This document shows, piece by piece, positions 3,641 through 64,000 of a stretch of 64,000 nt of DNA. The position numbers were made by a program, and so were the translations under genes. The DNA lies in assembly GCA_040954595.2 (NCBI GenBank), contig CM082589.2, positions 2,349,498 to 2,413,497 on the forward strand, written 5' to 3'. The notes below the pieces were generated by a model, which searched no databases, was not told where the DNA came from, and was given only the letters and a program-made list of their open reading frames with translations. Numbering within the stretch: the first letter of the stretch is position 1; every line of letters starts with the position of its first letter. The DNA is from Balanoglossus misakiensis (lineage: Eukaryota > Animalia > Hemichordata).

Positions 3641-4098
3641 TTCCCCATTATTTACATGCCCCTAGTTTTGTCGCCACACCCCCTTAACATCCCAAATGAT
3701 CTTACCCGTCATTTGCGCACAACAGTTTAAGATGATCATGTAATGCAGAACATGGTTTGAGTGGGGTGACCCTGTATAATAATCGCTTTACTGAACTTCT
3801 TCAAACATGCTAAACACCCTCAGTGATCGTACACCCCACCTCCTGTGGACCCGCATACACATTGCTTACAAAGGGATCACTTCGCACCAGCCAATTCAAG
3901 AAATAATGCAAAACTCGACACAACAGAAAGTTAAACTTTTCTCAGCTCTTTTTCAGATTCCTGGAAGATCTTCAGTTAAAGACTAGCAGAAAGCACAGTA
4001 AATTGCTACCACTCACTTGAAGTTGAACTTTTGTGGACAGAGAAACATTTACACCAAATTTATGCTAAGTAGATGCAATATATACAGAAGTCTGAAGG

Positions 4099-8419: not shown

Positions 8420-10543
8420 TCAGAGGATAGCCACACCACACCACTGCCTTAACCACACCAAAACAAAACAAACCAAAGACTCACAGTCCCAAGTGATATC
8501 CAAGTATTTGTCGATATATGGGCACGGGTCTCCAAACACCGAGTCGCTGGCTGTGACTGTACAACTCTCCTGTCCTTCGCACATGCCCTGGATAATTTCA
8601 ACACTGTTGCTTGCCATGCAGTCGTTGACGAAGAACAGGCCGCACACCGCCCATTCTGTGCGCCCGTAGTTTGCAGACTTGATCGCAATGTGGCCCCCGG
8701 GACAGGACAGAGTGGTTTCTTGATTCTTACATGCACGGTTGAAGTTTTCGGTTGCAATCTCAGTCGAAAACCTGCAGGTGTAGTTGATGTCGACGTATTT
8801 GTCGATATATGGGCACGGGTCTCCAAACACCGAGTCGCTGGCCGTGACTGTACAACTCTCCTGTCCCTCGCACATGCCCTGTATGATTTCAGCACTGTTG
8901 CTGGCTATGCAGTCGCTGACGAAGAACAGGCCGCACACCGCCCACTCCGTGCGCCCGTAGTTTGCAGACTCAATGTGGACTCCGCCACCTGGGCAGGTCA
9001 ACGTTACCTGCTGGTTCTTGCACGCACGAGCAAATTTTCCTGCGTGTATAAAATGAAAAAAGTGGCATCGTCGACGAGACAGTTTGACTTCTTTTTTGCT
9101 TTTGCGTCAAAATAACAATGTGTTAGCCTAAAACTAATAATATAAAAACTCGATGGATTTGATATCACATAATTATAAACTCAGTTCTGATGAGAATGTC
9201 TTACCTTCACTTTCGCAGAATGTTTCTACTATAAAATACAATTCGAAAATTTTTTTTTAGCAAACAGTAAAAGTTTAGACGATATGTGCCAGTGTTGCTG
9301 CTATAGCACGCGTGAAAATTCGATACATAAACCGTAGGCAGTCACATTTAATATTTCGAACAGATATTAAATCGTTTTAAAATCGATGCCGTAAGGGAAA
9401 TTAAAAAAAAGACGATGTGGTCTTACCTGGAGGTTCGGTCGCCACATGCACAGGGGGTTCAGTCGCCTCTGGGGCTACAACTGCCAAAATACTAAAATGT
9501 TATCTCTAGTTTTTACAGATCAGTTAACAGAAATGACGCGACTACAAATCTGATATAAGAATGAAAGGTTGCATTCCACATGATTCTAAGATAATTGGAC
9601 AGAAGAGCCAACAAAAATTGACGTTGAGAAAAATACACGATTGAAACATGTCTGTCTAAATGTATTTTTCCAAAACATAGAAACGAGAGGAGGTGGTAGT
9701 AAATACAGGGCTTACCAAAGTTGCCATAAGCGTAAAAGGACGTAACGCAACCGTCCAGCAACTGAGGTCCCCAGTCTCCCGATTCGCTGAGGGCATGCAG
9801 AGTAGTGCCGTCTTCGCTGACACCGAGAATTATGCCGTTTGGTTGTACCCCGATGTCCTTCACACTCAATCCGGCGCTTCTCATAAAAGCCCAATCGCCG
9901 TCGACAGCGCTCCTTACTTTCAGGGAGCCCGAGGCGCTGACGCCGATGAGACTCCCGTCTGGAGTCGCTTCGATCCTCACTGCTCCTCTGCTTTTCGGAA
10001 TGACGCTCCACTCCGAGGAAACGTCAGGATCTGACGTGACCAGTTTACCATCCGTGTTGATGCCAACGATGGTCCCGTCCGGCATCTGGGTGATGTCTGT
10101 CACGCAGCAGCTGTTGGGGATTTTCTCAAACGAACTTTCGTCGTACAGATAAGGTTTTCGGTAGAGCGAGTTGTCAAGGCCGACGGCGAGAATTGAACCG
10201 TCGCGCAAGACTATGGCCGCAGATGCACAACACGAATTGGGGATGGCACCATCTGTTTCCGTCACCAATACTTTATCGACGCATTCTACTGCTAGCAGGT
10301 TAAAATCATAGGCTGGAAATAAAACCAGATACCCGAATTTCAGAGTCGTTTCGATGTCATGCTGCATGACACGGAGGTACATGGGCTGATAGAGACAAAC
10401 TTTGACAGATAGCAAGAGCCAGTGGCGTGAGAGGGTTTCAGAAATAGATTTTACCAACATATTGTGCAGTTTCGAAACTTACTTTGGGATCTTCCAAGAC
10501 CGATGAAAGTGTGAACAGCCAGTGCTATTATTGCGATCTTCAT
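8420..10543 (-). CDS. Secreted lectin-like protein: signal peptide + ~40-aa-repeat beta-propeller + Pro/Thr/Glu linker + 2 SUEL (galactose/rhamnose-binding) lectin domains
   Basis: Exon 1 is MKIAIIALAVHTFIGLGRSQ (10543-10483). The propeller exon is at ~10312-9716, linker exons at ~9481-9427 (EATEPPVHVATEPP) and ~9227-9205, and the last exon at ~9039-8420. The last exon holds two copies of C...I.I.SANYGRT...C...C...FGDPCPYIDKY, the SUEL signature. Confidence 0.85.
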
Positions 10544-12178: not shown

Positions 12179-28132
<15,954 letters not shown>

Positions 28133-28970
28133 GCAAAATGAGTTGCAAAAAGACCACTCGGAGACTGGTATATATAGACATGCTTTGGGGGAGGGGTGTC
28201 TTTTTCTGATGACTTGCGTGATCACTCCTTTTCTGTATAAAACTCAGCAGGTAGGCGTACTGGCTTTGAAACCAATCACGCCATAAGCGGAACATCTGAT
28301 TATAATCTTCGGAATTCATCACTTTTGTTTCCACGTCATCATCATAATGACTGGAAATCAGCATGCGTTTGATTGCATTCCAGTGCTGGTGGACTTCAAA
28401 ACGAATTTTACAGGATTATTAAAATAAAATGGTCCACTTTCGAAGCATGAAACTGTGTAATTTTACATCGTATGTTATTTTAATAACGGAATAAAACTAC
28501 AAATTTTCTCTCTCTGTGGGTATAGTCACGTTTTCGCCAAATCCTATGCATGGATAATGAATCCAATATCTATTATGTGTCAATTTACGCGAATGCTGGC
28601 AAATGGTCATTTTCTATTTGTCTTACGGACACGTTGAAAAATGGCGTGAATTTTGTATGAATCAAGCGTTTGGGGCCGCCTAGATGATGAAAAATTGACA
28701 TGAAATGGATTTGGTCGTTCGTACATGTGGAGATCGGATCAATATAAAAGATTTACTGGATGTTTGTGAGCATGTTTGTCTTTTTCTCCTCGGGTTAATG
28801 AACTTTTTTATTATTTTCGACCCTATTTGAAGCACTTGAAAAAAGTGTATCAGTAAACCCCATGTTGAGCGGTAATTTCAGGAAGCAGTATGATGGCCAA
28901 TCAGTCGTAAATGGGTTTTATCCTATGCTCTTTTTCAATAATACCCACACATACACCCACACACACGTGG

Positions 28971-29093
28971 ACATACATACATGCATGCATACATACATAC
29001 ATACATACATACATACATACATACATACATACATACATACATACATACATACATACATACATACATACATACATACATACATACATACATACA

Positions 29094-29125
<32 letters not shown>

Positions 29126-29131
29126 CATACA
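28971..29131. repeat. (TACA)n microsatellite
   Basis: Directly visible acatacat array. Confidence 0.98.
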
Positions 29132-29645
29132 TGTACATGTCACTAGCGATGTTGATTTCAGTCAGTGACAATTAGCGCATGTGTATAGAGTAACACGAGC
29201 AACAGCTGTTTGTGAGGAGGTTAACAATGGTTCATGCACGTCAGGGAAATCAAACAGATACTGTCTCGAGGAGCAGACATGGGTATTTTGAGAATGGCGT
29301 TTCGGCGAAACAAAAGACTTGGGTCGATGTAATTATCACTTTGTGAATGACCCAAGAAGGCTTCGCAAGTGACGTTTATTTAATTAGATCCCACTTTTCA
29401 TGCTTGATGTATGAAACTGATCGATATAATTATAATACATGTAAGTATTTCTTCAGGCGGCCGCTCTAGGCAGAGGCCGACGGTAACATAAATCAATAGG
29501 TAACGCGATCTCCATGATTATTTTGCTCGGACTGTGAAATGTGCCTATCAAATGAAACAGTTGAGCGGTCATAATTACAGGAAGTGTCATTTGTTGGACT
29601 GTATATCGAGGACCTTTTTGTTGAAAGCTTCATATTTGCCCAAGG

Positions 29646-30470
29646 ATGACGTTGGTGGGACTTGAAAGGTCAGTATGTCTTCTTAGAGTCGAGGAAATAT
29701 TTATTTTATGAACTCTATAGGCAACATGAAATGTTAAACGAATAAAGGGGTTGTATTTCTATGAGCAAAACACCACCTTCTGACTTGTGGCTGAATCTAC
29801 CAGGAAGGCGTGTCCGTTAGTACAATGTGTTTTGTGGCTTAAACACGTGTTTTAAATTAGTTTTTAGCGCATCTGTTCGAAGGGGATACTTGTGTGCTTT
29901 GTGTTAATTCAATTGGGGCAACTGTATGCTAATGAACCTACATGTATATGGCCGTTCCAATTAACAGTTACATGGTACACTGGGACAAAGTGGAATCTCT
30001 GCAGCCACAAATGCGTCCAGGCGACATAGTGCAGATCAAACGCGACTACATACATGCCGGAATATATATAGGCGACGGAATGTTAGTTCACATATCTGCG
30101 CCTGATGGAGACGGACCCACTTCTGGAAAACTGACCGTCGTTAAAGAAAGTCTTGAAGACGCAGCGGGCGAAAATAAGGTCCGCATTAACAACGACGAGG
30201 ACAGCAAATACCCTCCTTTGACTGAAGAGCAGGTTGCTGAAAGAGCCAACGATTACGTTGGTAACAAGTACAAGAATGAAAATATAGAGCAGACGATTCG
30301 TTATTTTGTAACGCTGTGCAGGTACGGAGGCAGTCGTGTGGAACAGGAAGGATGGTCAGTGTTTAATTTTTGTTTGTTGTCTAATTTCCAAACGGTACTG
30401 AACACGATTAGGCAGTGTTAAACAATAATGACATTATAATTATCTGCTTTCATTTTTTTCCTTCAGGTAA
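29646..30470 (+). CDS. LRAT/PLAAT (HRASLS, NlpC/P60-like) domain protein lacking the catalytic Cys
   Basis: The main exon (~29968-30354) reads RPGDIVQIKRDYIHAGIYIGDGMLVH...VVKESLEDAAG...VRINN.EDSKYPPL...YFVTLCRYG. The start exon MTLVGLES (29646) and the stop at 30468-30470 are tentative. Confidence 0.8.
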
Positions 30471-31301
30471 CTGATCCATCACCAGGCATCGAATTTCGTC
30501 TTGTCACATCATGCAAAATTCATCGCTCGAAGAATTTACAAAGAGGGACCGCATGTGACACGCACAACTCTTGCAAGAAGAGAAGGGAGGAAAATTTTGC
30601 AATAAATTGAAGCTCGCATCCGAAGTTGGATGAGACAGGCTGTGATATCACAAACTGAATAGTCATGATGATATCCGAAAAATTTAATAAGTATGGCCTT
30701 GTTTGCTGGACTGCCCGTTTTATCAAATACCATGCATGCATTCGGATTATGAGAATTTCAAACGTCTTTCAGAGTGAGAGCTTCTAGACATACATGTCTT
30801 ATACTTGCTCCAATCGACTGACCCCCCTCTAGTCTGAATTGTCTTTCCTTTGCAAAGCTGTCTTTTCCGAAAAGATTCAGTGCTCATTTCTTCACATTTG
30901 CTGCTCGAAAATCAATACAACAACGGTGGTACATGTACTTGTATCGAGGTGTTTTATTAACTTGTACAAAGAAAGAGACAATCCAAATGTATTCTGCGCA
31001 TGACCTTAAATTGTATCATGCATATGCATGAACACTCAGTAAGCGTCATTGTCGTGTTTGATTGCCCACGTTGTAGGGCGAACCAGCCTCTTGTAAACAA
31101 CGGACTTTCTTGGTTTGTGGGTGTTATAATAGAAATGAAGGGGTCCAAGCTTACGATCAATAAGATTTATTTAAAGACTAATATATGGTGCTCAGCTTTT
31201 CCTCGCCTGTTGGCCGTTAATAAACGTTACTGGCAAGCTAGTCGCCCTATTTATTCCTGAGTGAATTCCATCGTACCAGTCCGTTATCTATTTGTTTATT
31301 T

Positions 31302-32857
31302 TTAAAATGGCGTCTCGGGTCGCTTCTTCATCCACTCTGCAATGCGGGGGAGTTTCTCAACTCGGGTCTTCAGAGCAGCCAGTTTGGGACAGTCTTTGAA
31401 CACTTCAGGCTTCCATTTCACCATGTTGAACGTTATGGCGGTGAATGACAGATCGGCCAGAGTCACCTAAAGCAAATAAAATACAAATGAAAGGGAAATG
31501 TCACACACACGCACCAAGGTTAGACCACAGGGATTTATTCATGGAAAGTAGAAAAATACTAATGTGATAAAAATTAAATCATCATGATGGGAGGAAAAAT
31601 TCAGATATGAAACAAAAGATGTTCTTACCGAGTCACCGACGAAGTACCCATCACCACCTTTGTTTTGCACAAGGACTTTCTCCAGACATTTCAACAAATT
31701 TGGGAAATATTCGCCATAGTTTTTGTCCATCATCTCTTTCTTCTTTGCTGCATCCTGTTCCAGAAACATTGCTTGAAGTTTTTCGTATATGTCATCCACG
31801 ACGTCGAAGACCATGTCAATCTTCGCTTGCTGCAAGGCGTCCTTGGCATATAGATCTGTTTTGAAATGGGTACAGGGGAAGATGTGTTTGTTATAGTGTC
31901 CACATCTCAGTGGATCACATGGAATGCACGATATTAGCACAATGTTTATAATCTAAAGCGCCCTCTCCAGATGACCTATGCGTATTGTTGCGTCCATGTT
32001 TACCAGTACGCCATTGGCAGTAAACTACTTACCATGCTGCCGTGCCAGGTAACGGGCAACCGTCTGGCTTTCGCTTATTGTTGTTCCGTCGATTTCCAAT
32101 GTAGGCAGACGACAAAACGGGAATTCTGTAACACAATCAATAGAGTTAAGCAACGCCCACAATAGCTTTTAGCATGTGTCGATCGTTTGTATAGACAAAG
32201 GGTCAATTACTTCGACTATTGTTGAGAAGTTGAGAACGTATGCCGCAATTACATATGCATTAGTTGGGACACAAACCGTTTTCTAACACGTGAAAATTTT
32301 GCTGAGTCACCGTTACAACTGATAACTTAGTAGTCACCCATTGAAAAATGCACTATTCAGTTCTCGTATAAAGGCCATGAAATACTAGTACATGTATCAC
32401 CCATGTGATAATATAGGCCTATTAACAGGTATTCAGTGGCGGCCTGGGTGTGACCTGCTTTTGAGGTCACTTATCGCATTTATGTGTAGGGGAGGGGCAT
32501 GCGGCAGAAGACTGGGGAGAGTTCGGTGCCCCCCCCCCCCACGATGACCCCACTATATTCTGTTACGTAGTAGGAAACGTAGTCCAACACAGCCACGCCA
32601 CACATCAATGGATCAATGGAATTCCCTTGCAGCTGAAGCGATAGTCCATTATTTAACCATTATCTAACACGTATCTCAGCTAAACCCTTCCACCAAGGGC
32701 ATGCAGGTATATACTTACTGCCAGAGTTTTTCAGGCCTGGCCAATCGTCCCGTTCAATCCTGACATCTTCATACTCAACACCAGCTGCAGCAAGGACAAA
32801 CCTCGACGTCTCTGCACGTGCTCTGATATTGAAGTAATTCAGGACGTATTTCACCAT
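31302..32857 (-). CDS. Sigma-class glutathione S-transferase (S-crystallin/HPGDS-like), 4 exons
   Basis: MVKYVLNYFNIRARAETSRFVLAAAGVEYEDVR, then PFCRLPTLEIDG...ARYLAR, then YFVGDS and VTLADL...IAEWMKKRPETPF*. Exons at ~32857-32719, 32125-32032, 31855-31629 and 31466-31302. Confidence 0.92.
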
Positions 32858-34528
32858 TTTAAATTCAGAGCGAGAGCTACCTGACCTGCGACTATCACAC
32901 TCTCTGCAGTTTGGAATTATGCAAATACCAGTGGTGTGACCTATGCTATATGTATCGAGAGATAAAGCGGCGTGGGTCGCCGACCTCCTTACAACACACT
33001 CAGGTGTATCTGAATATGAAAGGTGGTTGTCAAGGGGATGCTTGTACATACACTTCGATACACGTGTACATTAGAACATCCGATAACTTATTTTGGGTTT
33101 CAGTCATTTCAGAAGGGCTTTAAAATAGTTCAGACTATTAAATTTATTTACGTGGCTCCAATGCATTTTACCGTGTATGACTCAGCAAAACCCAAAAATA
33201 AACACATGTAAATTATAGATGGAGGACTTTTGTTCCCTGGCCTGAACACGTTTTACAAGCATGGTGTGAAAGACCGTCGAAAAACAACCATGACAAATTC
33301 AAATCTCTTACAAACAAGCATATAATTCACGAAAGAAATTCCTTTGGTCCGGGCCTTTACACAATCCCCGATTACGTAATCAAAAATTCGAGGTCTGTTC
33401 ATTCTTTCACTCATACGGAATATACAGATATACAGTTGATGAAAGCCTGAAAAGATATCTTTTTGAATTCGAATAAATATTAATGTTTCTGTGGGGACGG
33501 GCCCGTCAAACGAGATTTGGGCGGCATGTTTACTTAAAACTGTCACCTCCAAGTGTAGATTATGAACTGTATGACCGAATAAACGGTTGATAAATGCGTA
33601 TAGAGTCAGGAATGAAAAATGTTGGCACCAGGTGGTGTCCTATCAGATTATCCCGTTAGTTAATGTTATCGCCAACTTCAGACCATGTTGTGCCCCAGTT
33701 TTTATTTGATAAACCAATACTCTGCGGGCATTTCGTGAAAACTGTCAAGAATGACCGTCTGAAGTGTTCTCTAGTGGTCTGAGAAGCATATGGTAAGGAA
33801 AAAATTTACTCATTTTGGTCAAAAAAGGGTTGATGGAAATCGTCAATGGTTGTAGTTGTTGAACGGCGGAGGAAAGTGATTCTGTAACTCATCGGGAGTG
33901 TATATTTAAACAGTCTTTCTTCTCAGAGTACACTGCAACAGGTGTTTTAAATGGACGTGAATGCTTAAAGTAAACAAGAAGCAATACACGATGTTCCACA
34001 CCGTATTGATCCACACCAGTACAGGAATGTATGATGCCGTAATGTATTTAAATATCAATTAGCAAGGAAAATTTGAAGGTGTCGTCTGCGCTAACGTTAT
34101 GGGTTATTGTATTGTGCTGGGCTTTCTGTGCCTGAAAATGTACATAGCTTTGTTTGAGGCGAGGGGAGGTGACAGAGAAAATATTGCATTATCTACTAGC
34201 TATGAATACCAGTTGCTTCTCATGAACTAAATAATTGTAAATTGGCTTCTATTATGATTTCCTACGCAGCAGCTTTTTTCTTGTTCAGGTTTTGTCACGT
34301 GGTGATGTTGTTGTTGTTGGAATGACGATTCGAGAAGGCATTCACAGATGTTTATTTTCGCGAATTTCCCATGATATGATTCTTTGTATAATGACAGTAG
34401 GCAAAGACTGGCCTAAAGATATATATATATTTGCCAAACGGTTGAACTATTGAATGTTTTTTTTCATCAAAATAGGGATACAAATAAGACCTTCTTTGCA
34501 AGAGTTTTTTTTCGTCGACGTACCAAAT

Positions 34529-37500
34529 ATGCATACTGCGACAACATTTGTGTTGTGGGCGGTCTTATTGTTTGTTAATGCTGGAACAACCACCATTGAA
34601 GAAAGTCAAATGGTAAGTTGTCTCATGCCATTCTTCACAATGTAGTGCACAGGGCTACACTGCAAAACCCCACATGTACCCGTAACACGCAAATGCAGCG
34701 GTTTTGGCGTAGGACGGAATTTTTTAACAGGTGTGTGTGTATGTGAATATGCAAATGATATCGATTATGTTGATTTTATCCAGTCACACGGTACTGATCG
34801 ATTTCAAATCTTATTTCGTAAGCATTGTCTACTTGTTTTTGCCAGCGTAGACATGTATAGATAGTAGTAAGTGTTCCGCGATTCATTCTACGATTAATTT
34901 ATTTCATAAAATTTTAATCTCTTCAACTCTTCAGCAAGTGTCATTACAAGACCGGAAACTGTCAGATGTTGATGAAATCACCAATTTCATATGCCATGAT
35001 TCCAGTGCAGGCATGCGTAAAGTTTGTACCACAGAGCTGCAAGGGTGCAAAATCGATGTCAATCTAACAAGGAACGTTGGTAAATGTATTGTCTATGTGT
35101 TATATACAATATAAACATCCCTTATCAAAAATCGAGGTTCTTCTATGCAAATTTAAATCATTGAGTAATCCTGAACTGATTTATGCTTCACTGACAGGAC
35201 TGTTATCGCCCAATGCGAAAGCGCAATACATGACTGATGACAGAGAAGACTATTTCCACAAAATCGAACCCCAGCGCTGCTTCTTTCTTGGTTCTGTCGC
35301 TATGTGGTGTGAAAATAACAGCCCCAGGAAGGAAAGAGGCAGGGCTGCCCTCAATATGTGCGAAGGCATGGTAAGCCACTGAAGCCAGCAGCAAAAACTA
35401 GACGCTCAACTTTAAAAATCAATATGTCGTAATGCATTTGTTTTTGTCACGTTATGATATCTAAATATATTTGGCTGTATCCTCTGTCCTTCAACAGCTG
35501 ACATATACAGCTACGCCATTTATGTATTTTGTTTGGTTTATTCGAATAGCAAGGAATGATGATAGTTGATGATGTACGGTATAGCATCACTCCGATGCAG
35601 ACAGAAGAAGGCGTCTACACTGTGCAACTTTTGGCCGAAGGCTCTACAATGTCCAGCAATGTGGCCAGCGAGTTCGATCCAGATAGTAAGAAAATGATAC
35701 TACTGTTCTCAATTTTATCTGGAGCTGAATAGTTGAATAAATTATGCCTGATGTCTGCTAGAACACTTAAATTATAAATAAATCATATGTCTGTAGCAGT
35801 CTGTCGATGTTAAATACATTGGATTTTTGTCGCTTGTATTTTTATCAGATGTACGATTGACTTTATCGAACGGCATGACCCTAAGTGACAACAGTGGATA
35901 CACAAGAAAAACAACAATTCGTGAACAAGCACAGAATCATCGTCGGCGCTCACCGGGAGACGTGGGAGCTACTCTGCATGTAGAGATGCTTTTGACGATT
36001 GATTACGACTTTTACAGATTGCACGGGAAGTCTTCTGTCATGCAGGCATTGTCTCTGATCAACCAGGTCGGTTTATGTTTAGTTAGCATATACCCCTTTC
36101 CAGATTAGTATTACAGCGAACAGAAGGCGAATTCGAATCCTTATTTTGAAGTCAGATGTAGTTCCATCTTTGCCAGCGTATCTGCCTGCTGTCTGTCTTG
36201 CATAGGATGTCTAAGCATCACACAGTGATAGTACTCATCCTAGAATATTTTTATTTTGCTTTTAGGCTCAGTCAGTGTTTTATCACAGCAGTCTTGTCGA
36301 CAGCGAAATTTTTATAAGTCTTCATGTGGTCAACATTCAAGTCATGACAACTCCTTATCTGCTGGTGAGCTTGATATATGTATATAAATATTTTAATGCA
36401 AGAATGTTTGAGATTATATCATAAATTTCACCACATCTGAGAGATACATAGGAAGAAATTAGTCGGATTCATTCCACTTCCTTCACAGAAACTTCGCAAC
36501 TTGGACCAATGGACAGACATAGCTGATGCCTACGTCACATATTCAAATGATTGGGAGACTAAGTTCTGGATACCAGATGATAAGGACCCAGAGCACCATG
36601 ATATCGCTTTGTTATTGACCGGGTATGTTAGCGATAAGCACGCTTTATGTATGTATTCATTCGGCCATTTTCGTGACCCGTATGTGACCTTACGTCCTTG
36701 TACTTCCGCTGGTATAGGTGTCAACATCTAACATTCTGGTACAAGAAACGTGTAAAATATTGCTTGAAAAAGAATCACCTCGGTAAATCAGTTAGTAATT
36801 TATTGACTACATTTGCAATTACAGAAATATTGTAGAGTTTTTCATCAAACTGGTGGATTTATACCAACAGATGTACGAGGATGTAAGGTCATGTAAGAGT
36901 CATGAAAATGGCCTTCTAACTTTACTATCTTCCCATTCAGTTCTTCATCTAACGTGAACGACGATGAAGCCATGACAACGTACAAGAGTTGCAATGAAGG
37001 CAGAACCGGTGTTGTTCGCTACTCGACGCCAAGCCACACAAGTGCTGTCATCGCCCATACACTTAGTCTGATGTAAGTAGACTAACACATGAAAGCTCAT
37101 AGAGGCAGCCATGTATTCTACCTGTGCATTACTTTCATAGGGAAGCTATTCTCATGTGTTGGGTAAAGCCTGTATCAACCGTTACATGGCACGGGTGTTA
37201 TCATTGATTCACTACAGGTCGTCTAAGAAGGCATTGTACGGTCCATTGTTTCTTTCAGTATTCGGGAAACACCTGGACATTACATAACAGTTAATTTCAA
37301 AATACGTGTTGGCATTCAGATGTGTTGAATTTGCCATGTATACACAAAGGTAAAACCAATGTTGTCGCCATTAACGCTTCTAGGCTTGGGATGTACTATG
37401 ACTTCAAACACCCTCTGTGTGGTGATATTTACAAGGAAGACGATGAATCAAGCAACGGGATTCTCACCGACCCAGATAGATTGTACTTTACCGAATGCAA

Positions 37501-40500
37501 CAGAAGAGATGTCCTCTTTTATTATCAGTAAGTTGTCCAAGTTGTTGATCAATGTCATTTTCAAACGTTGCAAATATTGATACATGTTACTTCATTTTCC
37601 ACTCAATTCAATCTACACACGACTGTCTTTACAGAAATCCAACAGTCGACTGTTTTGATGATAGTCCCATACCAGAAGAACCAAAGGAGATTGCTATGAT
37701 GCGTTATCCCTCACCCGCCGATGCAACCTGCGCTGGACTTTATGAAAACCATGACGATTATTTCAGCGTGCGAGTCTGTCCTTGGCGATATCCTTCGGTA
37801 TGCGCCACTTTTAAACACTTCTCACATTTGCGCACCCAAGATGTTTCACGCTTGTCTGAAAATTAACATCCTGCTTAACAGTCACATTGCCCTGTGTAAT
37901 ATATTCCACCTATCGTTCGTGCGTTTATTTTAGAGCGACTGCGCACTTTGGTGTGAACTACAGCCTCGCAACCAAGATGGCGTCAAGCGTGTTGACAAGA
38001 AGATTTGTAAAGCAGAGGACGAACCAATGCCGCTGGACAGTGGCGTGCCTTGCGAGGGCAACAAGGTACAGGAATATACAGGTTATCATTTCTGAAGCCG
38101 CTATTTTGATTTGATTGCTATGTGAGATTATTTTGGGGAATCTTGATATGCTTATTATTTCTTACCCTTTTAAGGTATGTGATGGACCTGCATGTGTATG
38201 CCCAGAAGGAAACATCTGCAAAGAACGGACGAGAAGATCTGGTAAATTTTGTTGTTCATAAGTGCACTAAGAATGGCCCCCTTGCTTTACTGAAATACCA
38301 AATGTACTATACTCAGGTCAATAACATTCCGTTTGTTTGATTTCTCTGGATGGGAGAAATACTTTGAAGCATAATGCGTTTTTGTACGCTTATCTCTACT
38401 TAACAGCATCAATCCACCCAAGGTTCTACACTTTCCACAAAACCAGATACACAGATCAACAGTCTGCCGATCTTGTGTGCAGGGACAATGTCGGCATGCT
38501 GTTGGAAATACCCAATGTGGAGACACAGGCATTATTGGAAGACATAATTGCTAGAACCACCTCGTTCGACTATTTCTATATGGGATTTAGACGCAGCAGC
38601 GAGGTTGCTGACGAATGGGTGTTCATCAATGACACGGCTGTGAAATACTTTAATTGGCAGGTGAACGAGCCTAATGACAACAGCAGCGAATGTGCAGTAA
38701 TGAGGTAATTCCGAGCCACCTCAATACTAGTTGACATGTCACGCTGTGCTTTACCAATAACAAAGTGTTGGCCACCAAAATATCCCTTTCAAGTTGTTAA
38801 TTTAAAGTAAACGATGGCATTTCTGTTTCAGTCGCGATGATGGATACATGTGGTTGGACTTCAGCTGTGATGGCGGTGCAGCCTTTATATGTCAATATGG
38901 TGAGAAAGGCAGCTAACAACTAAGTTTTTCCAATATTGCGATACCTTATGCATGGAGATAGCTTCAACCCAAAATATTCACTTTAAACATATTCGATAAT
39001 GATACTGATAACAATTTCACACGTTTCAGACTGCTACACCGAAACTGAATGGTGCAAGCATGGTACTATAAGTAATTCGACTGGTACTACGTGTACCTGC
39101 ATTTGCGACACTGGTTGGCATGGGGACTTCTGTGAATGTAAGGAAGGTTTACTTTTTTTCCAAGTTTGTCGTTGGTCTTTTCAAAAGTCAGACTCGCCGA
39201 ATCGTCAAAGTTATGATCAAATATCATATTACAATTCAACATTTTGATTTTTTTAGTGATGGACACGAAAGGGGCGACAAACTTCGAAGTAAATCAGAAA
39301 GATTTGAATTATACTGCTGCCAACACGCACTGCTTGGACTTTGCTAATACGAAGCTTCCAAGTGTATCGGATGAAACGTCTTATAACGAGTTCGTCACTT
39401 ACCTTCAAGACACCGAACAGCTTGCTTCAACATTTTACGTCGACTTGACACTTGTTGATAATCTTTGGGTGGACAGCAACTACAAAACACCTCGTCAGAC
39501 ATTTTGGGCGGCAAACGAACCGACGCCAGGCAAAAACTGCGTTGGCATTTGGTATGTACCGACTTCTACACCCATGTTGTTAATTTGCATAAAACTGGCA
39601 ACACAAGATCATTATGCAAATATGCACGTGTCCATTGCGTTGCAAAACAATACGCATTGCATCGTTTGTTAACTCTGAGATTATTTTGCTTACTTTCAGT
39701 GGTTGCTATGAATTCTTATGGAGATCTGTAGACTGTAGCGAGGTTCATAAAGTTGCTTGTGCATTAGGTAAGGAATGCATGCGTCATATATGATATTTGC
39801 CAGTATGTGTTATTGCATAAGTAAAACCAGGTGATGGGCAGGGTTGGTTTACTATTTTCGAAACACCTGATATCACTTCGTAATTTCAACAGAGGTCCAG
39901 AGACACAATATATTTATGCTTTTGTTACAGGATGCAGAAAAACCGACGAAGAATGGTGTAAAAATGGCGACATTGTATTAAACAAGGGAAATTGCGAGTG
40001 CCAATGTTGGGAAGGGTCAATTGGTACATACTGTAACGGTAGGTTTACTTGTTTCCATGCAAAATATTGATTGTTAACCCGAGAATACATATGTGTAGAT
40101 GTTCCTGAAAAAGGTAACTCTTGGCGTTCAATTTCCTGAATTTCAGATTTTGACTACAGCGACTTTATCAACAAAACCATTCTGTTCTATGAGGAGCAGC
40201 GCTCTGGATATCTGCCACCAACCAATAGAATCGACTGGAGGGCGAATGCACATTTGCAGGACGTCGGACAATATGGCGAAGACCTCACAGACGGTTGGTA
40301 CGATGGTGAGGACGTCAGAATTTTTTTCATGAAACCTCAGTGTTGTTAACATTGTCATAGTTCATTTTCCGAACTCCACGATACTCTGCAATCATGGTGT
40401 ATTCATTTTTCCTTGTTAAATTACGACAGCTGGTAATTATGTGAAATTCGCATTGACGGTCAGTGAAAATGTTTGGAAGCTTGCCTGGGGACTAATCGAG

Positions 40501-42815
40501 TTCAAGTCAGCCTACGTGGACGCCAATCTACTGAACGACTTTTACGACTGTCTGAAATGGGGCACGGATTTTCTGCTGAAAATGCATTTGGAACCGGACT
40601 TTCTTTATGCGCAGGTAATCGGCCATTTGCATGACCTCTGTAAGACCTATGTTTTCTACTTCCGGTCGCTGTCATTGGAATGGGTCCGCCATATTGATTT
40701 CCAGCCCAACAGAGAACCATCCATTGTATTGTGAATCTGTTGGCTTATCTTAACAAATGGAAATTATGTGGTTTATTTTTAGACTGCAACATGCAAATTA
40801 TGCAAAACATAAAAACACGTTCTCTTCACTTCACCAGGTTGGTTCTGTCACGTTCGCCAAGACTACATGGGAACGTCCCGAAAACAGCACTGAGGGCGTA
40901 CGTGTTGGCCTGCCTTTGAATGTCACCCATCCAGGAAGTGACGTAGCTGGGGGAACATCGGCTGCATTTTCGGCATCGTACCTTGTATTTAAAGACGTCG
41001 GTGAGCGCACAGGGGAACTATAGTCACTCCTATTTTACATCAGATGCGCATAAAATGTTCTGTTTGTCAGAATCCGTAGAAAAAAGTGCTACCTGAATTG
41101 TTCCAATTAGTGTAGTTTATATAGTTAGTTCATTTCTCATTATGTGTTATTTATTTTCGCTTTTCTTGATTATCATCTTAAGATGAGCTCTACGCCGCCG
41201 AACTATTGGCCCATGCCAGAGATGCATACACCTTCGCATACACCTATCGAGCACTCTGGTCCGACAGTTTACCAGTCTTAAGCTACGTGTAAGTACATGT
41301 GATCGCCTGCCACAAGTGGCGTACGCGTTTTCGTGGGCCTCTATCTCTCTTTCCGTATTTAATAAGTTAAGAAAAGTTAATTGGCTTCTATTACGTTTAT
41401 TAATACTTACTTGCTTGCAATATCAAACTATTCATATGCTGGTCAATACAGGAGCAGCTCTTATGAAGACGATCTTACAAACGCTGCAATTTGGCTGTAC
41501 AACGCGACCGGTGAAAAGAATTATCTTGATGATGCCGAGAATCTGTACACTGAATTCGGACTGAACTACGCAGAGGCCATCTTCAGCTGGGCCAAAGTGC
41601 ACGTTCCCGTGCAGGTAATAAATTTCTTATTGGTCTAATCCGGACCACCTAAGACATAAATGTACATTGACTTGACTTCACGGTAGATAATATACCGTCA
41701 ATGGAGATCTACATTAAATCTATGTTCTCTGTTTTCAGCTAATGCTGTATCTGCACACGGCAAATACAACCTATCTGAACAGAGTAGAGGAAACGTTCGA
41801 GATGTGGTTCAATACCTACTACACACCGAAGGGACTAGCGAGGATTACTGACAACAGGGCACTGAAAAAAGCCGGTACGCAGTTCCTTCGTCCAGTAATG
41901 TAACATCTGTCATGGGTTTCTTTGGCTCTGCTAAAACACAGTGTAGACTATCTGATACTTCTGCTGAGATGAGACGGATATCTGGCGCCCCTTGCCACCA
42001 AAATGGCTATTTTCTCGACAAATTGGGCAGAAGATTCACTGATGTTTCTCCCGGTATTTTTTTATTAATTATTTCAGTGGATATGTCCTATCTTGGGTTG
42101 ATATGCGCCAAACATGGAATCCACGCCCAGGAATATTTTGATTTTGCCGAACAACAGATTCACTACGCTTTGGGGTCTGCTGGAAGAAGTTATATCTCAG
42201 GATTTGGTCACAACTCTCCCGAGAAAGTTCACCATCAGGCCAGGTAGAGTTTGTGCCATACTCAATCATTATGAAACTTGCAACACTAATAGTTTGGTAA
42301 CACAAAGACCTAGTTCGTCTGAGCAAATTGGCCGTGGATAGTATACTGTTGTTTGCAATATAAAGTCGTTTTGATTAAAACTGCATAGATGCACAATGCA
42401 TTGACGGATTTAATCTTTTAAATCTGACAGTTCCTGTCCGGAAATGCATGAAGTCTGCGATGATAACGCCAGAAATTCTGAAGAAATTAATCCGCACACC
42501 TTGTGGGGTGGTTTAATCGGCGGACCAGACGCGTTAGATCGCTTCTTTGATCACAGAAAGAATTGGGCTCAGAATGAAGCTGGTATCAACGTGTCTGGCT
42601 TACAGAGTGCTGTTGCAGGTAAGAAGTGTGTTATGTTGTATACAATAACGCCTGTTTTACTGGAATTTAAATGAGGTCGGGGTCGAGACTGTCTGGAGGT
42701 GTCCTGGGACGAGGCTACCACATAATTCACCATGAATGATTACACGTTCCAGCAGTAATCATTTTCCCATGTTTTCATTGCAGCTTTAGCTTACTTCCGG
42801 AACCAGCAGGGATAA
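34529..42815 (+). CDS. Gene B: SP - pro - non-catalytic M12B-like - Cys-rich - CTL - EGF - CTL - EGF - GH9; paralog of the 3' half of gene A
   Basis: The signal peptide is [19 protein letters not shown], and homology to 20630-12179 is nearly exon by exon. Landmarks: [77 protein letters not shown] and [10 protein letters not shown]. Confidence 0.88.
40147..42815 (+). CDS. GH9 endoglucanase (cellulase) domain exons of gene B
   Basis: [64 protein letters not shown] and [14 protein letters not shown]. Confidence 0.9.
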
Positions 42816-43039: not shown

Positions 43040-43785
43040 ACAAAGTTGATGGTGACGTCATCGAAACCCTGTAGGTCATATTGCTACACTGCTGTTTGTC
43101 GGTTGGTGGCGACATTAAAAAATCCGCAACAGACCTTGCCTTTCGAATATGTAAGAACTGTGTCTCAACTATTTGCATATGATATAGACGGAGCGTTTGA
43201 ACAGGTGCGAATAGTCTGGCGATGTACGCGGTTTTTCAATTTATATTTAAATTTGATGACCTTTTGGTGACCAAGCGGGTTAAATTAATTAGGTCACAAT
43301 TTATTTGCCATACCGTTGGTGGCGACATTTAAAAATCCGCAACAGACATTACCGTCCGTGTAAGTCAGAACTGTGTCTCAACTATTTGCATATAGACGAA
43401 GCGTTTGAACAGGTGCGAATAGTCTAGTCTGGCAATGTACGCGCCGCACGTTTTCAATTCATATTTAAATTTATGACCTATTGCTGAGCAAGAAAGCGGG
43501 TTAAATTTTTTAGGTCACTTCTTGATCAGTTCGCGAGGTCATTGAAATTACTCCACTATTTTTCTCAGGTGTTTGGCAGTCTTGAGTACAGGAAAAAATA
43601 TCAAACAGGTCGGATATTTTGCTCGATGGCACATAGGGAAAAAATCAACAAAAATTAGCAGGACACAAGAGATAACAAATGCTGACTAAAATTCCTCAAA
43701 TAAAGTTGTTGGTGACGTCATTAAAACCTCGTAGGTCATATTGCTACAGTACATTTTATCATACCTGCCGTTGGTGGCGACAGTA
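43040..43785. repeat. Local direct repeats: 2 x ~212-bp tandem unit plus a third partial copy
   Basis: gttggtggcgacatt.aaaaatccgcaacagac...gaactgtgtctcaactatttgcatat...gcgggttaaatt...taggtcac occurs at ~43102-43297 and ~43315-43518. aaagttg.tggtgacgtcat..aaa...gtaggtcatattgctaca occurs at ~43042 and ~43702. Confidence 0.85.
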
Positions 43786-45334
43786 AAGAATTTACTGGAT
43801 TTTTTTAAGGCAGCAGCGTCTATTGCTTTTCCTGTAACGCGTAGATGAACAAACATCAACACGTAAAACCGACATTGTACCATGATTCTACCTTTGGTAT
43901 TTTAGAACGATACTTAAGACTATTTGTCACGGGGTATATATCCTAATTTTGACTTATATAGGGGTGCTATTCTAAAAATCCTCTATTCCGGTCTTCCCGT
44001 AGTTAGGAAACATGAGGGTTAAAACATAACAACATTTACATATACGAGTTCGTTATGCTGGTGGACCGATGTGAAATTACTATCCTAATGCCCAATGAGT
44101 CTCTTATATAAAATGCATAAATATGAATATTTATGAATTAATTTATAAAATGATATTTTCCTCATGGTTACGAGCGCTGGTATGGAGGACGGCAGACAGA
44201 TGTTTATCACATGTGCAGGTAACTGTCGTGGCGTGCGCACGTTCAAAACAATGGATAAACAGGGTAGTCTTTTACAGCCATCCCTTGCCACGGTAGGCTC
44301 TACAGTAAGAATAATAGGAATGTTGGAATTTCTATAAAATAAATAAATAAATTCATCGTGCATGTAACGAGATTTCATGTTCAGAACACCTATCTATTTT
44401 TCAAAGCATCGGATGGAAATTTTAAAACAGCATGATAATCAAAACTTCGAAGAAATAGTTTCCACCTCTTCCATTTCCCGTATATTCTGTTCCCCAATTG
44501 GTCACTGCAATCATCGTTAGCTTTCGTTTTAATCCACCTTAATCGCTGGTCAAAGTTTCTTAACTTTGAAAACAGTCCACTGTTAAAGTAACGATTTGCG
44601 CATGTCCAGAAGAGAAACTTTTGTGACGTTGTCTGGTTAGTGTCCAGAAAGTTCTGAATACATGAGTTCATTGAAATTAACAAGGTTAATTTGACAACAT
44701 TGTTGTTATTCTTGCAATGTTTACACGAAATACAGGTATTGAGCAGATGGACGGAACTGAAATTGACTGGTTGGCTAGACATTCCTTGGTAGTTTATTTT
44801 AAGCTATAATATAAAAAAATAATATCGTGGCTGAATACTTCACCCACCCGCCCGCCGACTGACTGACTTATCATGTTTTTAACAAACCCGCAAATGAATC
44901 CCTTAAAACGTGCCGTAATGATGCGTGCAGATGTTCATGCATCTATAACTGTCACTCAGCAAAATATTCAAGGTTCCAAATCCTTTATAAGAACTCTCTG
45001 GGCGAGCAGCCTGCAGTCCATCTGAGATCTAGCACCGTGGTGTGGATTGCAGACGGGATAACAGGTAAGAGGGAACTGGGAAGCTTGTTGTTCACATATA
45101 TGCTTTTCTTTAGTGCAGAGAGAGAGATTTCTTCGGACATGTAATCTTTCCGAGCGTACTTGGCCAATTCCATGGGTCTTGTTGTCCATCTTCGGCAGAA
45201 TAAATGCACTTTGCTTGGATCGATGAAAGAACAATTCTACAACACTAGACTTTCGATTACCTTATTTTTTGTCATCATTTATGCCATATTCTTTTGCAGA
45301 TTCTGATCAAACGCGGCATCCAAGAAACTCCATC

Positions 45335-48300
45335 ATGATTCTGCTGTCGGTGTTCATCTTGGCCGTAACGTGTTGTTATGGTAGGCCTTTGATTTTAATA
45401 TTACATTTGCTTCTAATATTGCCAATTTTGCTTTCCTGTGCGATCAAACATACACGCTCCGTTCTTTCATACATCATAACAAGGAAATAATTTAATTTTT
45501 ATTTGTTTGTTTTCTTTTCTAGCCACTTGCGATAAGCCCCATATCCTCTACATAGTTGCAGATGATTTGGGTAAGTGTTCCTCTGGTTATGAACAAAGAC
45601 ATAACAAAGCGTTCAACATAACTGTATTTTGCGTGGGTGAATTTTGTTTTATCTGTACGTTTACTTTCCATGTTTCGTTATTTCAATGATTGGCATTCGC
45701 TCATTGAAGAGCAGTCTCTGGTAATGTTGCATAAAATAATCAAGTGCTTTGAATTGGAGGTCATTTTCTGGCATTTTTTTCTCTTCTTCTTCTAGGATGG
45801 AACGACATGGGGTGGAACGACCCCAAGGTTCTTACACCACACCTCAGTCAATTGGCCGAAAATGGCGTGAAACTGAATAATTTATACGGCATGTCCGCCT
45901 GCAGTCCGTAAGTATGACTTTACCTTCCACTAAACCCGAGATGATAGTGTCTTTACTATTTGCCATTATTTTTTGTGCAATTATCATTGACATCGGGTCG
46001 ACCGTATAATCCCAGGGCAATAACATCGTTATACTGAACAATCTCCAAAATTGATCTCAGCGTGTAAATCGTGAACACTCGATGTACTTATTTTACCCAA
46101 TCTCTGTGTGTGAGAAGGAAATTACACTGACGTCTTACCCTATTCCATTACAGTTCCCGTGCTGCCCTGTTCACAGGGAGATACGCACCCAGCATCGGTT
46201 CTCAGGTAAGACATAGACACGTGACACGACCCCAGTGCTGTTTCAGTTTTCTTAATTATATGGGTGTCACCATGTACACCATCATACACTAACTCAACAG
46301 TGCCGTTCAATTCTTGTCGCAGCATTTTGTACTCTTCGGGAACATCCCCCATGGTGTGCCAACGACAATTCCATATCTACCAGCGCGACTGAAGGAAAAT
46401 GGATACAAAACATATGGTGTTGGAAAGTATGTTGTTATGATGCTTCCTGTGTGTGTTCAGTACTAAGCTTAATTGTTAACCGCGAGTCAAAATCAAAATG
46501 ATTATATTGTGGAAAAAGATACACAACTGAAGAAATAATGTATCAAAAACAAATAAAGAAAGCTTTTTATCTCAGATCTTAAAACTCTCCCCGTCCAGCA
46601 AGACGTTTATGTGGCCCGACTTTTTTATTTTTCTCAGATGGCATCAGGGATTCTGCAACTCTTCCTACGTACCTTCTGGCCCCAACCGTGGATTTGATCA
46701 TTGGTATGGTTTCTACAAAGGCGGTTGTACATACCACGAGCATACAGGATCTGAATGGGGTAAGAAATGCTGATTGTACATCATAAACTTTCGTATGTTC
46801 GTATGAATGTATATACATGTACGTTGTTCATCACCACGAAATCTCACAGCTATGTTTACATTTCAGGGCCAAAGGTAACTCCTGATGTAAAAATGGTCGG
46901 GTACGATTTACATGACGATGGAGCACAAGTTGATGATCCAAGACTAGCCTGCATTTACACCTCAGTAAGATTCTGCGTTTTGTCTCATAAAATTCCTCTT
47001 TAAATAGCAAAGGATACCCGAGCTTTTCGTGCGTTTTTTGGGGGTTCATTATTTGCAAAATGTTCAAGTATAAATACTTGAAATTGCGGAGAAATACCAA
47101 ACGCTTTCTATTTACGATACTAGTATATAACGAAATCTTCACGTGTTCTGTTACAGACCTTATTCCAACGGAAAATGGTTTCAAACATCATCGAACATGA
47201 CCCTGCTGTTCCAATGTTCCAGTTTGCCTCTTTCCAGTTGCCGCATTACCCAAGAGTGGTAGGGAGACATTTTTTTGATCGTTCACCTATTACAGGGCAT
47301 AAATACTAACCGCGTTGTACGAAGCATATCGCTACTTGTGAATTAATAAATCGTGTACATTCAACCACAAACACATCATTTTGTAATAAATTGTAATTCT
47401 GCTTTACAAATCGTTTATTTTTTATTTTCAGGTACCAGAGGAGTATTCCAACAGATATCCAGACATTATTGACCCAAACAGAAAAATATATTATGGTACA
47501 TAGACATTACGTCACCTTTATAATGAAAGTATTCATTCATGTTCTGTCTCTTTCTCTGTCTCTAAGTTCGTCTCGTTGTCTCTCTGTCCGGTTGAATACT
47601 CGTAATGCAGATCCATCATTCTCTCTTGTACACATCAGGACAAGTATCCTATTTGGATGAAATCGTCGGCGACATGGTTGCAGCTCTGAAGGAAAAGGGA
47701 ATGTATGAGGACACCTTGTTCATTTTCCACGCTGATGTAAGTATCAATCTAAAATAGTATTTGATATTGAAACATGGAAAAGAAGATAGAGTTTGGTGAT
47801 TTAAATCCACATTGGTCGGGCAAAAGTATGATTGCATGGTTTTCTTTTAAAATCTACAGAACGGTGGTGATGTTCATTCAGGTGCCTCTAATCATCCATT
47901 CAGAGGCAACAAAGGCACCTTCTTCGACGGAGGAATGAAATTGGTTGGTTTTGTTTCCGGCAAAGGAGTCGAGAAGACGGGCTACACTCATGACGGGTAA
48001 AGTTGCCTTCCAATAGAATTCGCATCTCTCCTGCCTTTGCCATTCAATGGCGTCTTTGATTCATGGCTTCGAGTTTCTGACAAAAGCGTTGTTCTTTTTG
48101 CAGTTTGTTTCATATAACCGACTTCCACCCAACTCTCGTCCAAGGTGTGGTAGGCGGAGAAGTCAGTGGTAAGAATTAAGCTTATATCTCTCAGAATACT
48201 GTCTGCTTAAATTGGTATATGACGGCGGCTTCACATACCTGATCTTCAATTTTGAATCACTGCTCGACGCATTGTTTCTTGTGTATAATCCGGAAGGTTC

Positions 48301-49526
48301 CTTCTTTAATTTCACAGATAACCTGGACGGGATGAACGTGTGGGAGGCGTTCTCCACCGGCGCCGAATCGCCACGCACGGAGTTCCTCATCACCGTGGAC
48401 ACCGACTTTGCCAACCGCCCAATCGACGATTACATGGGCGCAAACATCACTGCAATAAGGTGTGTGTGTCAATAACTCGTGCGCCTCCTGGTTGTAGAAC
48501 TGCCGGAACTAAGCACTAAAGCAGTCAAGATTTTCATTTCATCGGCAACCCATGCTCTCGTTCAACGATGACGTGGTTTCAGCCCCCGAAATATCGATTT
48601 GTGTGTATGATTGCACTTGTCATTTGCGCTAATCGATTTTTGATTTCTTATTTTCTGTAGAGTTGGTGATTGGAAACTCATGATTGGCATTCCAACATTC
48701 TCGTATACACATCAAGACTGTGAGTACTCTCTCTGTGTGTGTCTTGTAATTGATTTTTGGTGATTATCTAATTTGACGGGGTTTCTAGCAGATGCATCTA
48801 CTAAGCTTGGTATTGGCAGTACAAAGCCGAGGTTGTCATTTTTGCGTGAGTTGGGAACAAAGTTATGGTTTCAACGGTACTAAAAGACCACCTGTATTTT
48901 GTCTGCAGTCGGTTGGTATCCCCCACTCAACACAGAACACCCGACAGTGATTGAACCACCAGAGGAAAATACAGACGTATATTTGTTCAACATGAAAGGT
49001 AGGTTTTACTACTTCTCGACTCTAGGTGACAAGGGACGGTGTGTTGGTCCCGACCGATACAGTGGCAATCGTTTTAGCAATGAACGAGGTGAACTTGTGT
49101 ATACGAAACCGTACATATTTATACTAGTATACAGCTTTGTAAACGACAATAAGAGCGATGCAGCCTGAGCAAATGGGCAAATCATCCCCATTGATTTTGT
49201 TTCTAGACAGAAGTGTTATTCAATTATTTTAGGCAGGTGGTATTCTCCATTTGCCACACGTGTTAATTATACAAACCGCACGTGTTATTTGTGGTGAAAT
49301 TGACACCATATGTAAATCAGCTAGACTCTCACAAGATACCTTATCTCATTTTCCAGATGACCCTTACGAAGAACATAATCTTGCCGCTGAAATGCCCGAC
49401 AAAGTGGCCGAGCTCCGCGAAAAACTGAAGCCCTACGAGGCCGAAGCTTGGACATTCTGGGGCGATCCGACCGATGCCGCTGATCCCAAGAACTTCAACA
49501 ACTTCTGGGAAACCGGCTGGTGTTAA
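45335..49526 (+). CDS. Arylsulfatase B/I/J-like secreted or lysosomal sulfatase, ~16 exons
   Basis: The signal peptide is MILLSVFILAVTCCY. It is followed by KPHILYIVADDLGWND, an intact formylglycine motif CSPSRAALFTGRY, GYKTYGVGKWH, RGFD, DNGG, SNHPFRGNKGT, LDGMNVW, AIRVGDWKL and DDPYEEHNLA. Confidence 0.92.
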
Positions 49527-50930: not shown

Positions 50931-63886
<12,956 letters not shown>

Positions 63887-63939
63887 TGAGTAGACAATTT
63901 TATATATAATATAGAGATATAGATACGTACGTACATATA

Positions 63940-64000
63940 AATACATACATACATACATACATACATACATACATACATACATACATACATACATACATAC
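63940..64000. repeat. (TACA)n microsatellite running off the window end
   Basis: Directly visible. Confidence 0.97.

Follow-up and report, generated by a model that had tools for sequence, protein, structure and literature searches.

Acorn-worm proteins that join a zinc-less ADAMTS-like domain, a C-type lectin/EGF array and a GH9 domain with an altered catalytic base

Introduction

Animal endoglucanases of glycoside hydrolase family 9 (GH9), such as Nasutitermes NtEgl (PDB 1KS8) and the proteins of entries 3WC3 and 8IHW, with Thermobifida Cel9A (1JS4) as the mechanistic reference, are known with the catalytic domain alone or with a CBM2 module. ADAMTS-4, ADAMTS-5 and M12B proteins without thrombospondin type-1 repeats, among them the tick salivary metalloproteases, combine a prodomain, a basic site, an M12B domain and a Cys-rich domain. 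C-type lectin domains (CTL) are known from selectins, mannose receptor and mannose-binding protein. In the GH18 chi-lectins, an animal glycoside hydrolase fold has lost a catalytic residue, remains under selection and is used for binding. Here we analyse 64,000 nucleotides of the hemichordate Balanoglossus misakiensis (GCA_040954595.2, contig CM082589.2, positions 2,349,498 to 2,413,497 of the forward strand; hereafter the window), in which one gene, gene B, joins an ADAMTS-like domain, a CTL/EGF array and a GH9 domain. A longer reverse-strand paralogue consists of gene C (module 1) followed by gene A (module 2).

The family to which gene B belongs shares with the animal endoglucanases homology over the full domain, the acid Glu412 and the first Asp, whereas gene B has Asn for the base Asp57/58 and departs from them at Arg361, Asp416, Tyr417 and further cleft positions, and the domain is attached to CTL-EGF and M12B-like domains in place of CBM2 or nothing. 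The N-terminal half shares prodomain, basic site and M12B-like domain with ADAMTS, followed by a Cys-rich domain that resembles their disintegrin-like domain, but lacks the HExxHxxGxxH motif, has no recognised thrombospondin repeat or spacer and continues into CTL-EGF and GH9 domains. The succession of CTL and EGF is shared with selectin-type lectins (E-selectin, E 6e-6, with residues 645-782 of the Ptychodera flava relative XP_070555870, P0001), and CTL1 carries an EPN motif; unlike in selectins, the CTL-EGF units are repeated, WND is changed, most CTLs lack the motifs, and neither sushi domains nor a membrane anchor follow. Chi-lectins, our working analogy, belong to another family and fold, and binding is shown for them and only predicted for the GH9 here. 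The combination had been noted as one not known to be described; likewise, our search of the open literature (as distinct from subscription papers) returned no description of a lectin/ADAMTS/GH9 architecture, and the main text of the hemichordate genome paper (as distinct from its supplements) mentions no cellulase, lectin or ADAMTS. The fusion is present in RefSeq and UniRef solely as 'uncharacterized' or 'endoglucanase' models, and the family, built from known parts, is apparently undescribed.

Results

The gene B model, built by hand on GT-AG boundaries, comprises 27 coding exons that splice into one open frame of 1289 amino acids (aa) without internal stop (Table 1). All 26 introns are GT-AG and measure 107-322 nt. 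The encoded order is signal peptide, prodomain, M12B/ADAMTS-like domain, Cys-rich domain, CTL-EGF-CTL-EGF and GH9, with domain limits taken from Pfam on exon open reading frames (ORFs) and from family-derived profiles. Two junctions are critical for the fusion, that from EGF2 to GH9 (40038/40147, intron of 108 nt) and that from the Cys-rich domain to CTL1 (38241/38407), and both are phase 1-1. When scored with a matrix derived from the 77 modelled junctions, both proved ordinary, the donors ranking 47th and 44th and the acceptors 42nd and 17th from the bottom. Neither of the two introns contains an AATAAA or ATTAAA hexamer, while three such hexamers lie 3' of the gene B stop. The fusion is thus confirmed as real at the level of the gene model. 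The start and end proposed in the initial annotation coincide exactly with those of the rebuilt gene, and its view of junctions in compatible phase from signal peptide to GH9 is borne out by the introns and the open frame. A single secreted multidomain protein, as also proposed there, is supported by this frame, with secretion predicted from the hydrophobic N-terminus. It had overlooked the furin-type site between the pseudo-protease and the lectin-GH9 part.

Relatives were found in acorn worms. Of 38 candidates in a search with a pair of GH9 exons, one protein matched, namely P0001 (1375 aa, with four isoforms, XP_070555869-72, P0001-4), in which Reprolysin, Lectin_C and GH9 all score above cut-off. 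Gene B is 55-78% identical to this P. flava model over the mature domains (M12B-like 69%, CTL1 75%, CTL2 55%, GH9 76%), and 42% identical in the prodomain. HMMER with P0001 residues 130-1314 against 1.84 billion representatives gave 4838 matches at E<=0.001, relatives more than 50% identical to P0001 being subsumed in its cluster and 20 other matches named. Among the best 150 of the 4838, four stand far above the rest after P0001, all from acorn worms: Glandiceps talaboti P0005 (CTL-CTL-EGF-GH9, partial), P. flava P0006 (CTL/EGF array, KKRS, prodomain, M12B, Cys-rich), Saccoglossus kowalevskii P0007 and P. flava P0008. Further sequences from their clusters are S. kowalevskii P0155 (XP_006812177, 1948 aa; Reprolysin, Lectin_C and GH9) and P. 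flava P0160 (XP_070551254). GH9 exon 24 retrieved none of three candidates, P0001 residues 130-935, run against 5811 candidates 756-2407 aa long, retrieved P0001 alone, and these searches did not return the gene B protein itself.

The uncharacterised models concerned are P. flava XP_070555869-72, XP_070551727, XP_070551254 and XP_070549345, S. kowalevskii XP_006812177 and XP_077868348, and G. talaboti XP_077985298. They share the domain order of the family and are annotated 'uncharacterized' or 'endoglucanase-like', and those with a GH9 keep the DAGD motif, except XP_070555869-72. EGF or CTL-EGF directly precedes GH9 in models of three genera. Family profiles run over 179 sequences found M12B-like domains in this family only, and CTL with GH9 outside it only in two Mytilus GenBank models (P0166, P0169). 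These were rejected as relatives: their truncated CTL is of another type, and they are probably merged neighbours, since RefSeq has a separate 286-aa lectin and 576-aa endoglucanase. Other animal GH9 fusions among the matches (P0016, P0125, P0009, P0014) comprise EGF repeats with GH9 in S. kowalevskii, CUB with GH9 in Homarus americanus, and CBM2 with GH9 in P. flava and Diadema.

A maximum-likelihood tree, midpoint rooted, was calculated from 46 GH9 domains (seven of the family and the 39 top-scoring others, a selection that omits the remaining full domains, including the near-copies P0157 and P0159). The seven CTL/EGF-fused domains form one clade (100/100), within which genes B and A and P0001 form a subclade (100/100). 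Several DAGD members (P0160, P0157, P0159, P0008) lie on one P. flava contig and are candidates for an active sister enzyme.

The GH9 domain itself is full length and shows 40-46% identity to ordinary acorn-worm GH9s. PF00759 scores above cut-off in all six gene B exon ORFs tested, and in P0001 it reaches 367 bits (E 2e-109, profile positions 1-437 of 444), with a match to 1KS8 at E 1e-99. The second Asp of DAGD is described as the catalytic base (PMC6032398, PMC4071793), azide rescue being cited for Asp58 (PMC4071793), and elsewhere both Asp residues are given as base (PMC4221708). In gene B the motif is DAGN, and its Asn stands opposite Asp57 of 1KS8 and position 58 of 1JS4, where the latter numbering rests on match ranges as distinct from a residue-level alignment of the isolated domain. 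We aligned 142 full GH9 domains (147 found in 163 sequences, five near-duplicates dropped), nine from the family and 133 from outside. Asp occupies the base position in 123/133 outside domains and Asn in 4/133; P0080, P0139, P0142, P0122 and six others make up the ten without Asp. Within the family, Asn occurs in gene B, gene A and P0001 and the other six keep DAGD, while the acid Glu (E412 in 1KS8) and the first Asp are invariant in all nine. The same three sequences alone in the family lack the His of D-x-D-H (kept by 119/133 others) and the region-II Arg (105/133), a residue that is not invariant across GH9 (PMC6032398). The two region-II His are kept in gene B.

Further changes extend to the whole fused clade, which lacks the QWGS Trp (present in 118/133 others), the LRY Tyr (90/133) and Asp416/Tyr417 (118/133 and 115/133). 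Apart from region II, the roles of these and the other cleft residues are those generally ascribed to them in GH9. The absence of these residues clade-wide means that the DAGD members probably favour a substrate other than cellulose. PROSITE pattern PS60032 matches P0155 and P0009 and has no match in gene B, the long paralogue, P0001 or three DAGD sisters. A complete GH9 cellulase had been proposed for gene B. The domain is indeed complete, but it is probably not a working cellulase, with the base replaced by Asn and the region-II Arg and cleft residues changed. Because the base is Asn, it likely binds glycan uncut. For the same reasons, of the suggested roles in polysaccharide capture or in processing and digestion, the former fits better.

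The zinc site of the M12B-like domain in genes B and A reads HTLSLMLGMYYD (first His at 37056 in gene B) against the consensus HExxHxxGxxH, a motif found in none of the family M12B domains scanned. On these residues the domain of gene B is zinc-less and without a protease motif. Tested singly with Pfam, five N-terminal exon ORFs of gene B matched no family; run on the homologues, PF01421 (cut-off 20.8 bits) scored 25.4 in P0001, 31.5 in P0006 and 49.8 in P0155, and the prodomain family PF01562 matched P0001 and P0006 below cut-off. The best PDB matches of the pro-M12B-Cys region were ADAMTS-5 (E 1e-8, P0006) and ADAMTS-4 (E 1e-3, P0001), the latter alignment extending across the Cys-rich domain, where no Pfam family matched. 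The top Atlas cluster for the M12B/Cys-rich region was Reprolysin/ADAMTS Cys-rich 2 (0.92), taken as a lead only, and whole P0001 gave no usable Atlas match. Single-sequence AlphaFold models, with a mean pLDDT (predicted local distance difference test) of 35, were too low in confidence for fold comparison. The ADAMTS-like pseudo-protease originally suggested here is therefore upheld by the lost zinc motif, the PF01421 scores and the PDB matches. Pfam recognised no thrombospondin type-1 repeat, ADAMTS Cys-rich or spacer family in P0001, P0006 or P0155, and a repeat-like Trp pattern is absent; with neither repeat nor spacer, the protein is not an ADAMTS.

An EPN motif in a CTL as a rule points to Ca-dependent binding of Man/Glc/GlcNAc-type sugars. 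EPN is kept in CTL1 of genes B and A, P0001, P0155 and P0160, with WND there replaced by WLD, WID or WVD; most CTLs of the long form have neither EPN/QPD nor WND. Pfam Lectin_C places CTL1 of gene B above and CTL2 below cut-off. Of the two CTLs proposed to stand in for a CBM, only CTL1 has EPN. Ahead of CTL1, R-x-[K/R]-R is present in four of the five module-2 sequences, gene B included, reading RRKR/S in gene A and P0001 and RRKR/T in P0006, and basic sites also occur 3' of the prodomains. P0160 is a natural signal peptide-CTL-EGF-CTL-EGF-GH9 protein and thus a counterpart of the piece predicted to be released; its leader also has RQTP. Hydropathy shows no membrane-spanning stretch past the N-terminus, and Pfam finds no sushi domain in P0001.

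The long paralogue has a linker exon between modules 1 and 2, flanked by introns of 122 and 143 nt, and the same EGF-KKRS-prodomain join is found in P0001 and P0006. From the first M12B domain on, its domain order equals that of P0155, with 34-35% identity over both halves, and against a single tandem gene stands the newer Saccoglossus annotation, which divides the locus (P0154, P0007). Modules 1 and 2 are 29% identical over pro-M12B-Cys and share nine of ten intron positions, which points to an old internal duplication. The architecture of gene B had been said to recur in gene A. It does so as a paralogue that agrees with gene B in the position and phase of each of the 26 introns, but gene A lacks a signal-peptide exon of its own and forms the 3' half of the 53-exon gene. 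The gene A exon matching exon 2 of gene B is directly preceded by an in-frame stop, so that an upstream donor is needed. An own start at an in-frame ATG 5' of the linker exon, with a poor signal-like stretch by eye, seems less probable than splicing onto gene C, and an apparent stop in the gene A GH9 proved intronic, as the acceptor lies downstream of it. The leader of P0001 ends in KRQIPP and is joined straight to the last EGF, and exon 2 of the long paralogue ends in KRQTPP in the same phase; omission of exons 3-23 leaves an open form of 1353 aa. Either the full tandem form or this skip form may be made. The intron at 19031-19773 (743 nt) is by far the longest of the tandem gene. Outside the two genes, the interval 28100-34400 included, the window yielded no additional family exons. 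Gene B may be an inverted duplicate of module 2 that has a signal exon of its own.

Between genes B and A, 1235 aligned codons gave proportions of nonsynonymous and synonymous differences (pN, pS) of 0.19 and 0.66 and a ratio of the corresponding rates (dN/dS) of 0.14. The ratio ranged from 0.07 to 0.24 in the six domains with computable dS (GH9 0.14, M12B-like 0.10); for the two EGFs, where dS was not computable, pN/pS was 0.10 and 0.18. By these values, purifying selection is shown to act on all gene B domains, and those without catalytic residues are therefore still constrained.

Table 1. Features of gene B and its paralogue in the window (coordinates in window positions)
Feature	Position	Strand	Remarks
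Gene B	34529 (start ATG) to 42815 (end of stop)	+	
Gene B exons 1-6	34529-34612, 34935-35079, 35198-35370, 35550-35685, 35849-36066, 36266-36364	+	
Gene B exons 7-12	36489-36622, 36941-37072, 37384-37527, 37635-37797, 37934-38065, 38175-38241	+	
Gene B exons 13-18	38407-38704, 38832-38899, 39030-39137, 39257-39551, 39700-39767, 39931-40038	+	
Gene B exons 19-24	40147-40305, 40430-40614, 40838-41000, 41183-41288, 41452-41614, 41739-41874	+	
Gene B exons 25-27	42078-42243, 42431-42618, 42784-42815	+	
Predicted signal peptide	34529..34612	+	exon 1; hydrophobic N-terminus, hydropathy only
Reprolysin-type prodomain	34986..35684	+	aa 46-179; family profiles; PF01562 below cut-off in P. flava homologue
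Basic site RRRS	35941	+	before catalytic-like domain
M12B/ADAMTS-like domain	35971..37671	+	aa 221-434; family profiles; PF01421 in homologues
Cys-rich domain	37690..38222	+	aa 441-536; like ADAMTS disintegrin-like domain
Furin-type site R-T-R-R/S	38226..38240	+	between Cys-rich domain and CTL1
CTL1	38421..38898	+	aa 548-664; EPN at 38667; WLD instead of WND
EGF1 exon	39030..39137	+	phase 1-1
CTL2	39274..39766	+	aa 707-821; without EPN/QPD or WND
EGF2 exon	39931..40038	+	phase 1-1; joined to GH9 over 108-nt intron
GH9 domain	40147..42815	+	nine exons, from about aa 858; Pfam
GH9 supporting Asp	40302	+	kept
GH9 catalytic base	40435-40437	+	Asp to Asn (DAGN)
GH9 region-II Arg	42236	+	Arg to Gln
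GH9 catalytic acid Glu	42576	+	kept
Long paralogue (genes C+A)	12179..28096	-	53 exons, one open frame, 2383 aa
Long paralogue, first part		-	signal peptide-pro-M12B-Cys-CTL-CTL-EGF-CTL-EGF-CTL-EGF-KKRS
Long paralogue, second part		-	after KKRS: pro-M12B-Cys-RRKR-CTL-EGF-CTL-EGF-GH9
Module 1 (gene C)	20944..28096	-	leader, prodomain, zinc-less M12B-like, Cys-rich, four CTL, three EGF
Linker exon	20772..20821	-	50 nt, KKR/S; last EGF of module 1 to prodomain of module 2
Module 2 (gene A)	12179..20628	-	gene B paralogue; DAGN at 14702-14700

Directly downstream of the long paralogue lies a small lectin-rich neighbourhood (8423-10478, -), with two tandem SUEL (rhamnose/galactose) lectin domains (8423-9106, PF02140 E 6e-38) and a long ORF weakly similar to tachylectin (9516-10478). 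The two divergently oriented family genes are separated by an LRAT/NlpC-P60-like ORF (29936-30418, +) and a glutathione S-transferase gene (about 31300-33070, -). Elsewhere on the forward strand are a SNARE/syntaxin gene (about 4000-5900), a protein kinase found by Pfam (45200-49500), which we take to be ROCK-like from its motifs, and sulfatase-like exons seen by eye (61000-64000), two ORFs of which gave no Pfam match. Tetranucleotide microsatellites occur at 26750-26940 and 28980-29130, and downstream of gene B, at 43040-43790, a repeat unit of about 200 bp occurs twice in direct orientation and a third time as a shorter match.

Discussion

For gene B itself, we consider the chances even that a convertase splits the proprotein into two parts, one zinc-less and ADAMTS-like, the other CTL-EGF-CTL-EGF-GH9, and that the latter binds glycans but leaves them intact. 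The product would be secreted and cleaved by a furin-type convertase after the prodomain and before CTL1. In the freed piece, CTL1 would bind Man/Glc/GlcNAc-type sugars in a Ca-dependent manner and the remodelled GH9 cleft would hold a beta-glucan-like ligand, with no hydrolysis. The dead protease module may serve as a scaffold for folding, latency or matrix anchoring. Within secreted mucus or the fluid of the gut, the protein might trap or tag food particles or microbes that have glucan walls; this is the least supported of these steps. More tentatively, and with somewhat less than even chances, the family as a whole could comprise convertase-processed acorn-worm polyproteins in which a GH9 cellulase has become a glucan-binding lectin, a GH9 parallel to the chi-lectins, freed together with the CTL-EGF arm when one or two dead ADAMTS-like modules are cut away. 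The DAGD sisters would be enzymes on the same non-cellulose glycan, giving a natural pair of enzyme and binder.

Several observations weigh against this proposal. The role in mucus or gut is drawn from general acorn-worm biology. CTL1 has WLD or WID in place of WND, CTL2 has no sugar-site motifs, and the lost cleft aromatics could also weaken glucan binding. No furin-type site is found in Saccoglossus P0155, whose model seems to be without that exon, and no R-x-[K/R]-R follows the Cys-rich domain of module 1. What the databases offer in support are predicted gene models: only two loci (P0001-4, P0155) have all three domain types in one model, P0005, P0006 and P0008 are partial, and the split Saccoglossus locus counts here as well. 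The retained acid Glu and supporting Asp leave room for residual or redirected hydrolysis. Asn and Gly base variants are on record in Medicago and sea squirts, their activity undetermined, and the PROSITE pattern as printed permits Asn (both PMC6032398).

That the GH9 is still a hydrolase, slow or acting on a non-cellulose glycan, aimed by the CTL-EGF array in a digestive or wall-lysing enzyme, we regard as unlikely for the window genes. It would explain the invariant acid and first Asp in 9/9 family domains, DAGD in six of them, the purifying selection on GH9 and the clade-wide cleft changes, which look like a shift in specificity. Set against this are the base Asn of gene B, gene A and P0001, the loss, confined to this subclade, of a His and an Arg close to the site of cleavage, and the azide rescue that gives the base role to this very Asp (PMC4071793; the paper also proposes that catalysis has been lost sporadically in GH9 while binding was retained); the hydrolase explanation suits the DAGD sisters better. 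Less likely again is a structural or adhesive protein of extracellular matrix, mucus sheath or egg coat, making contacts with proteins and self-glycans, with the GH9 barrel as scaffold. Both enzyme domains without their catalytic residues, the scarcity of EPN/QPD and WND in the long-form CTLs and the loss of several aromatic cleft residues agree with it, and tandem CTL-EGF units would make a long rod. A pure scaffold, however, would need none of the retained acid Glu, first Asp and two region-II His, and EPN persists in CTL1 of five sequences.

A modelling artefact, in which an ADAMTS-like/CTL gene merely adjoins a separate GH9 gene, is highly improbable. Database models of several relatives are split or partial, and merged models do occur, as in Mytilus. 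Against it, the EGF2-GH9 intron, with its ordinary splice sites and no poly(A) hexamer, leaves no space in which a promoter or signal exon could lie, junction and phase are identical in both paralogues, and EGF or CTL-EGF stands just before GH9 in three genera.

As to origin, an animal GH9 may have acquired its CTL and EGF modules by phase-1 exon shuffling, after which the pro-M12B-Cys-CTL/EGF block would have duplicated internally before the Saccoglossus-Ptychodera split. Loss of the base in one subclade would be later, and an inverted duplication of module 2 would have given rise to gene B.

The usual view of animal GH9s is that of digestive cellulases, and genome surveys tally them accordingly. 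The present family suggests instead that a GH9 was recruited by exon shuffling into a lectin/pseudo-protease polyprotein, an event that appears more than 370 million years old, and 'endoglucanase-like' annotations within it may be wrong. The base-less subclade, under strong selection, would allow a direct test of a non-catalytic GH9 by comparison of DAGN proteins with their DAGD sisters, and the family may help to find the molecules by which acorn worms capture particles or recognise microbes.

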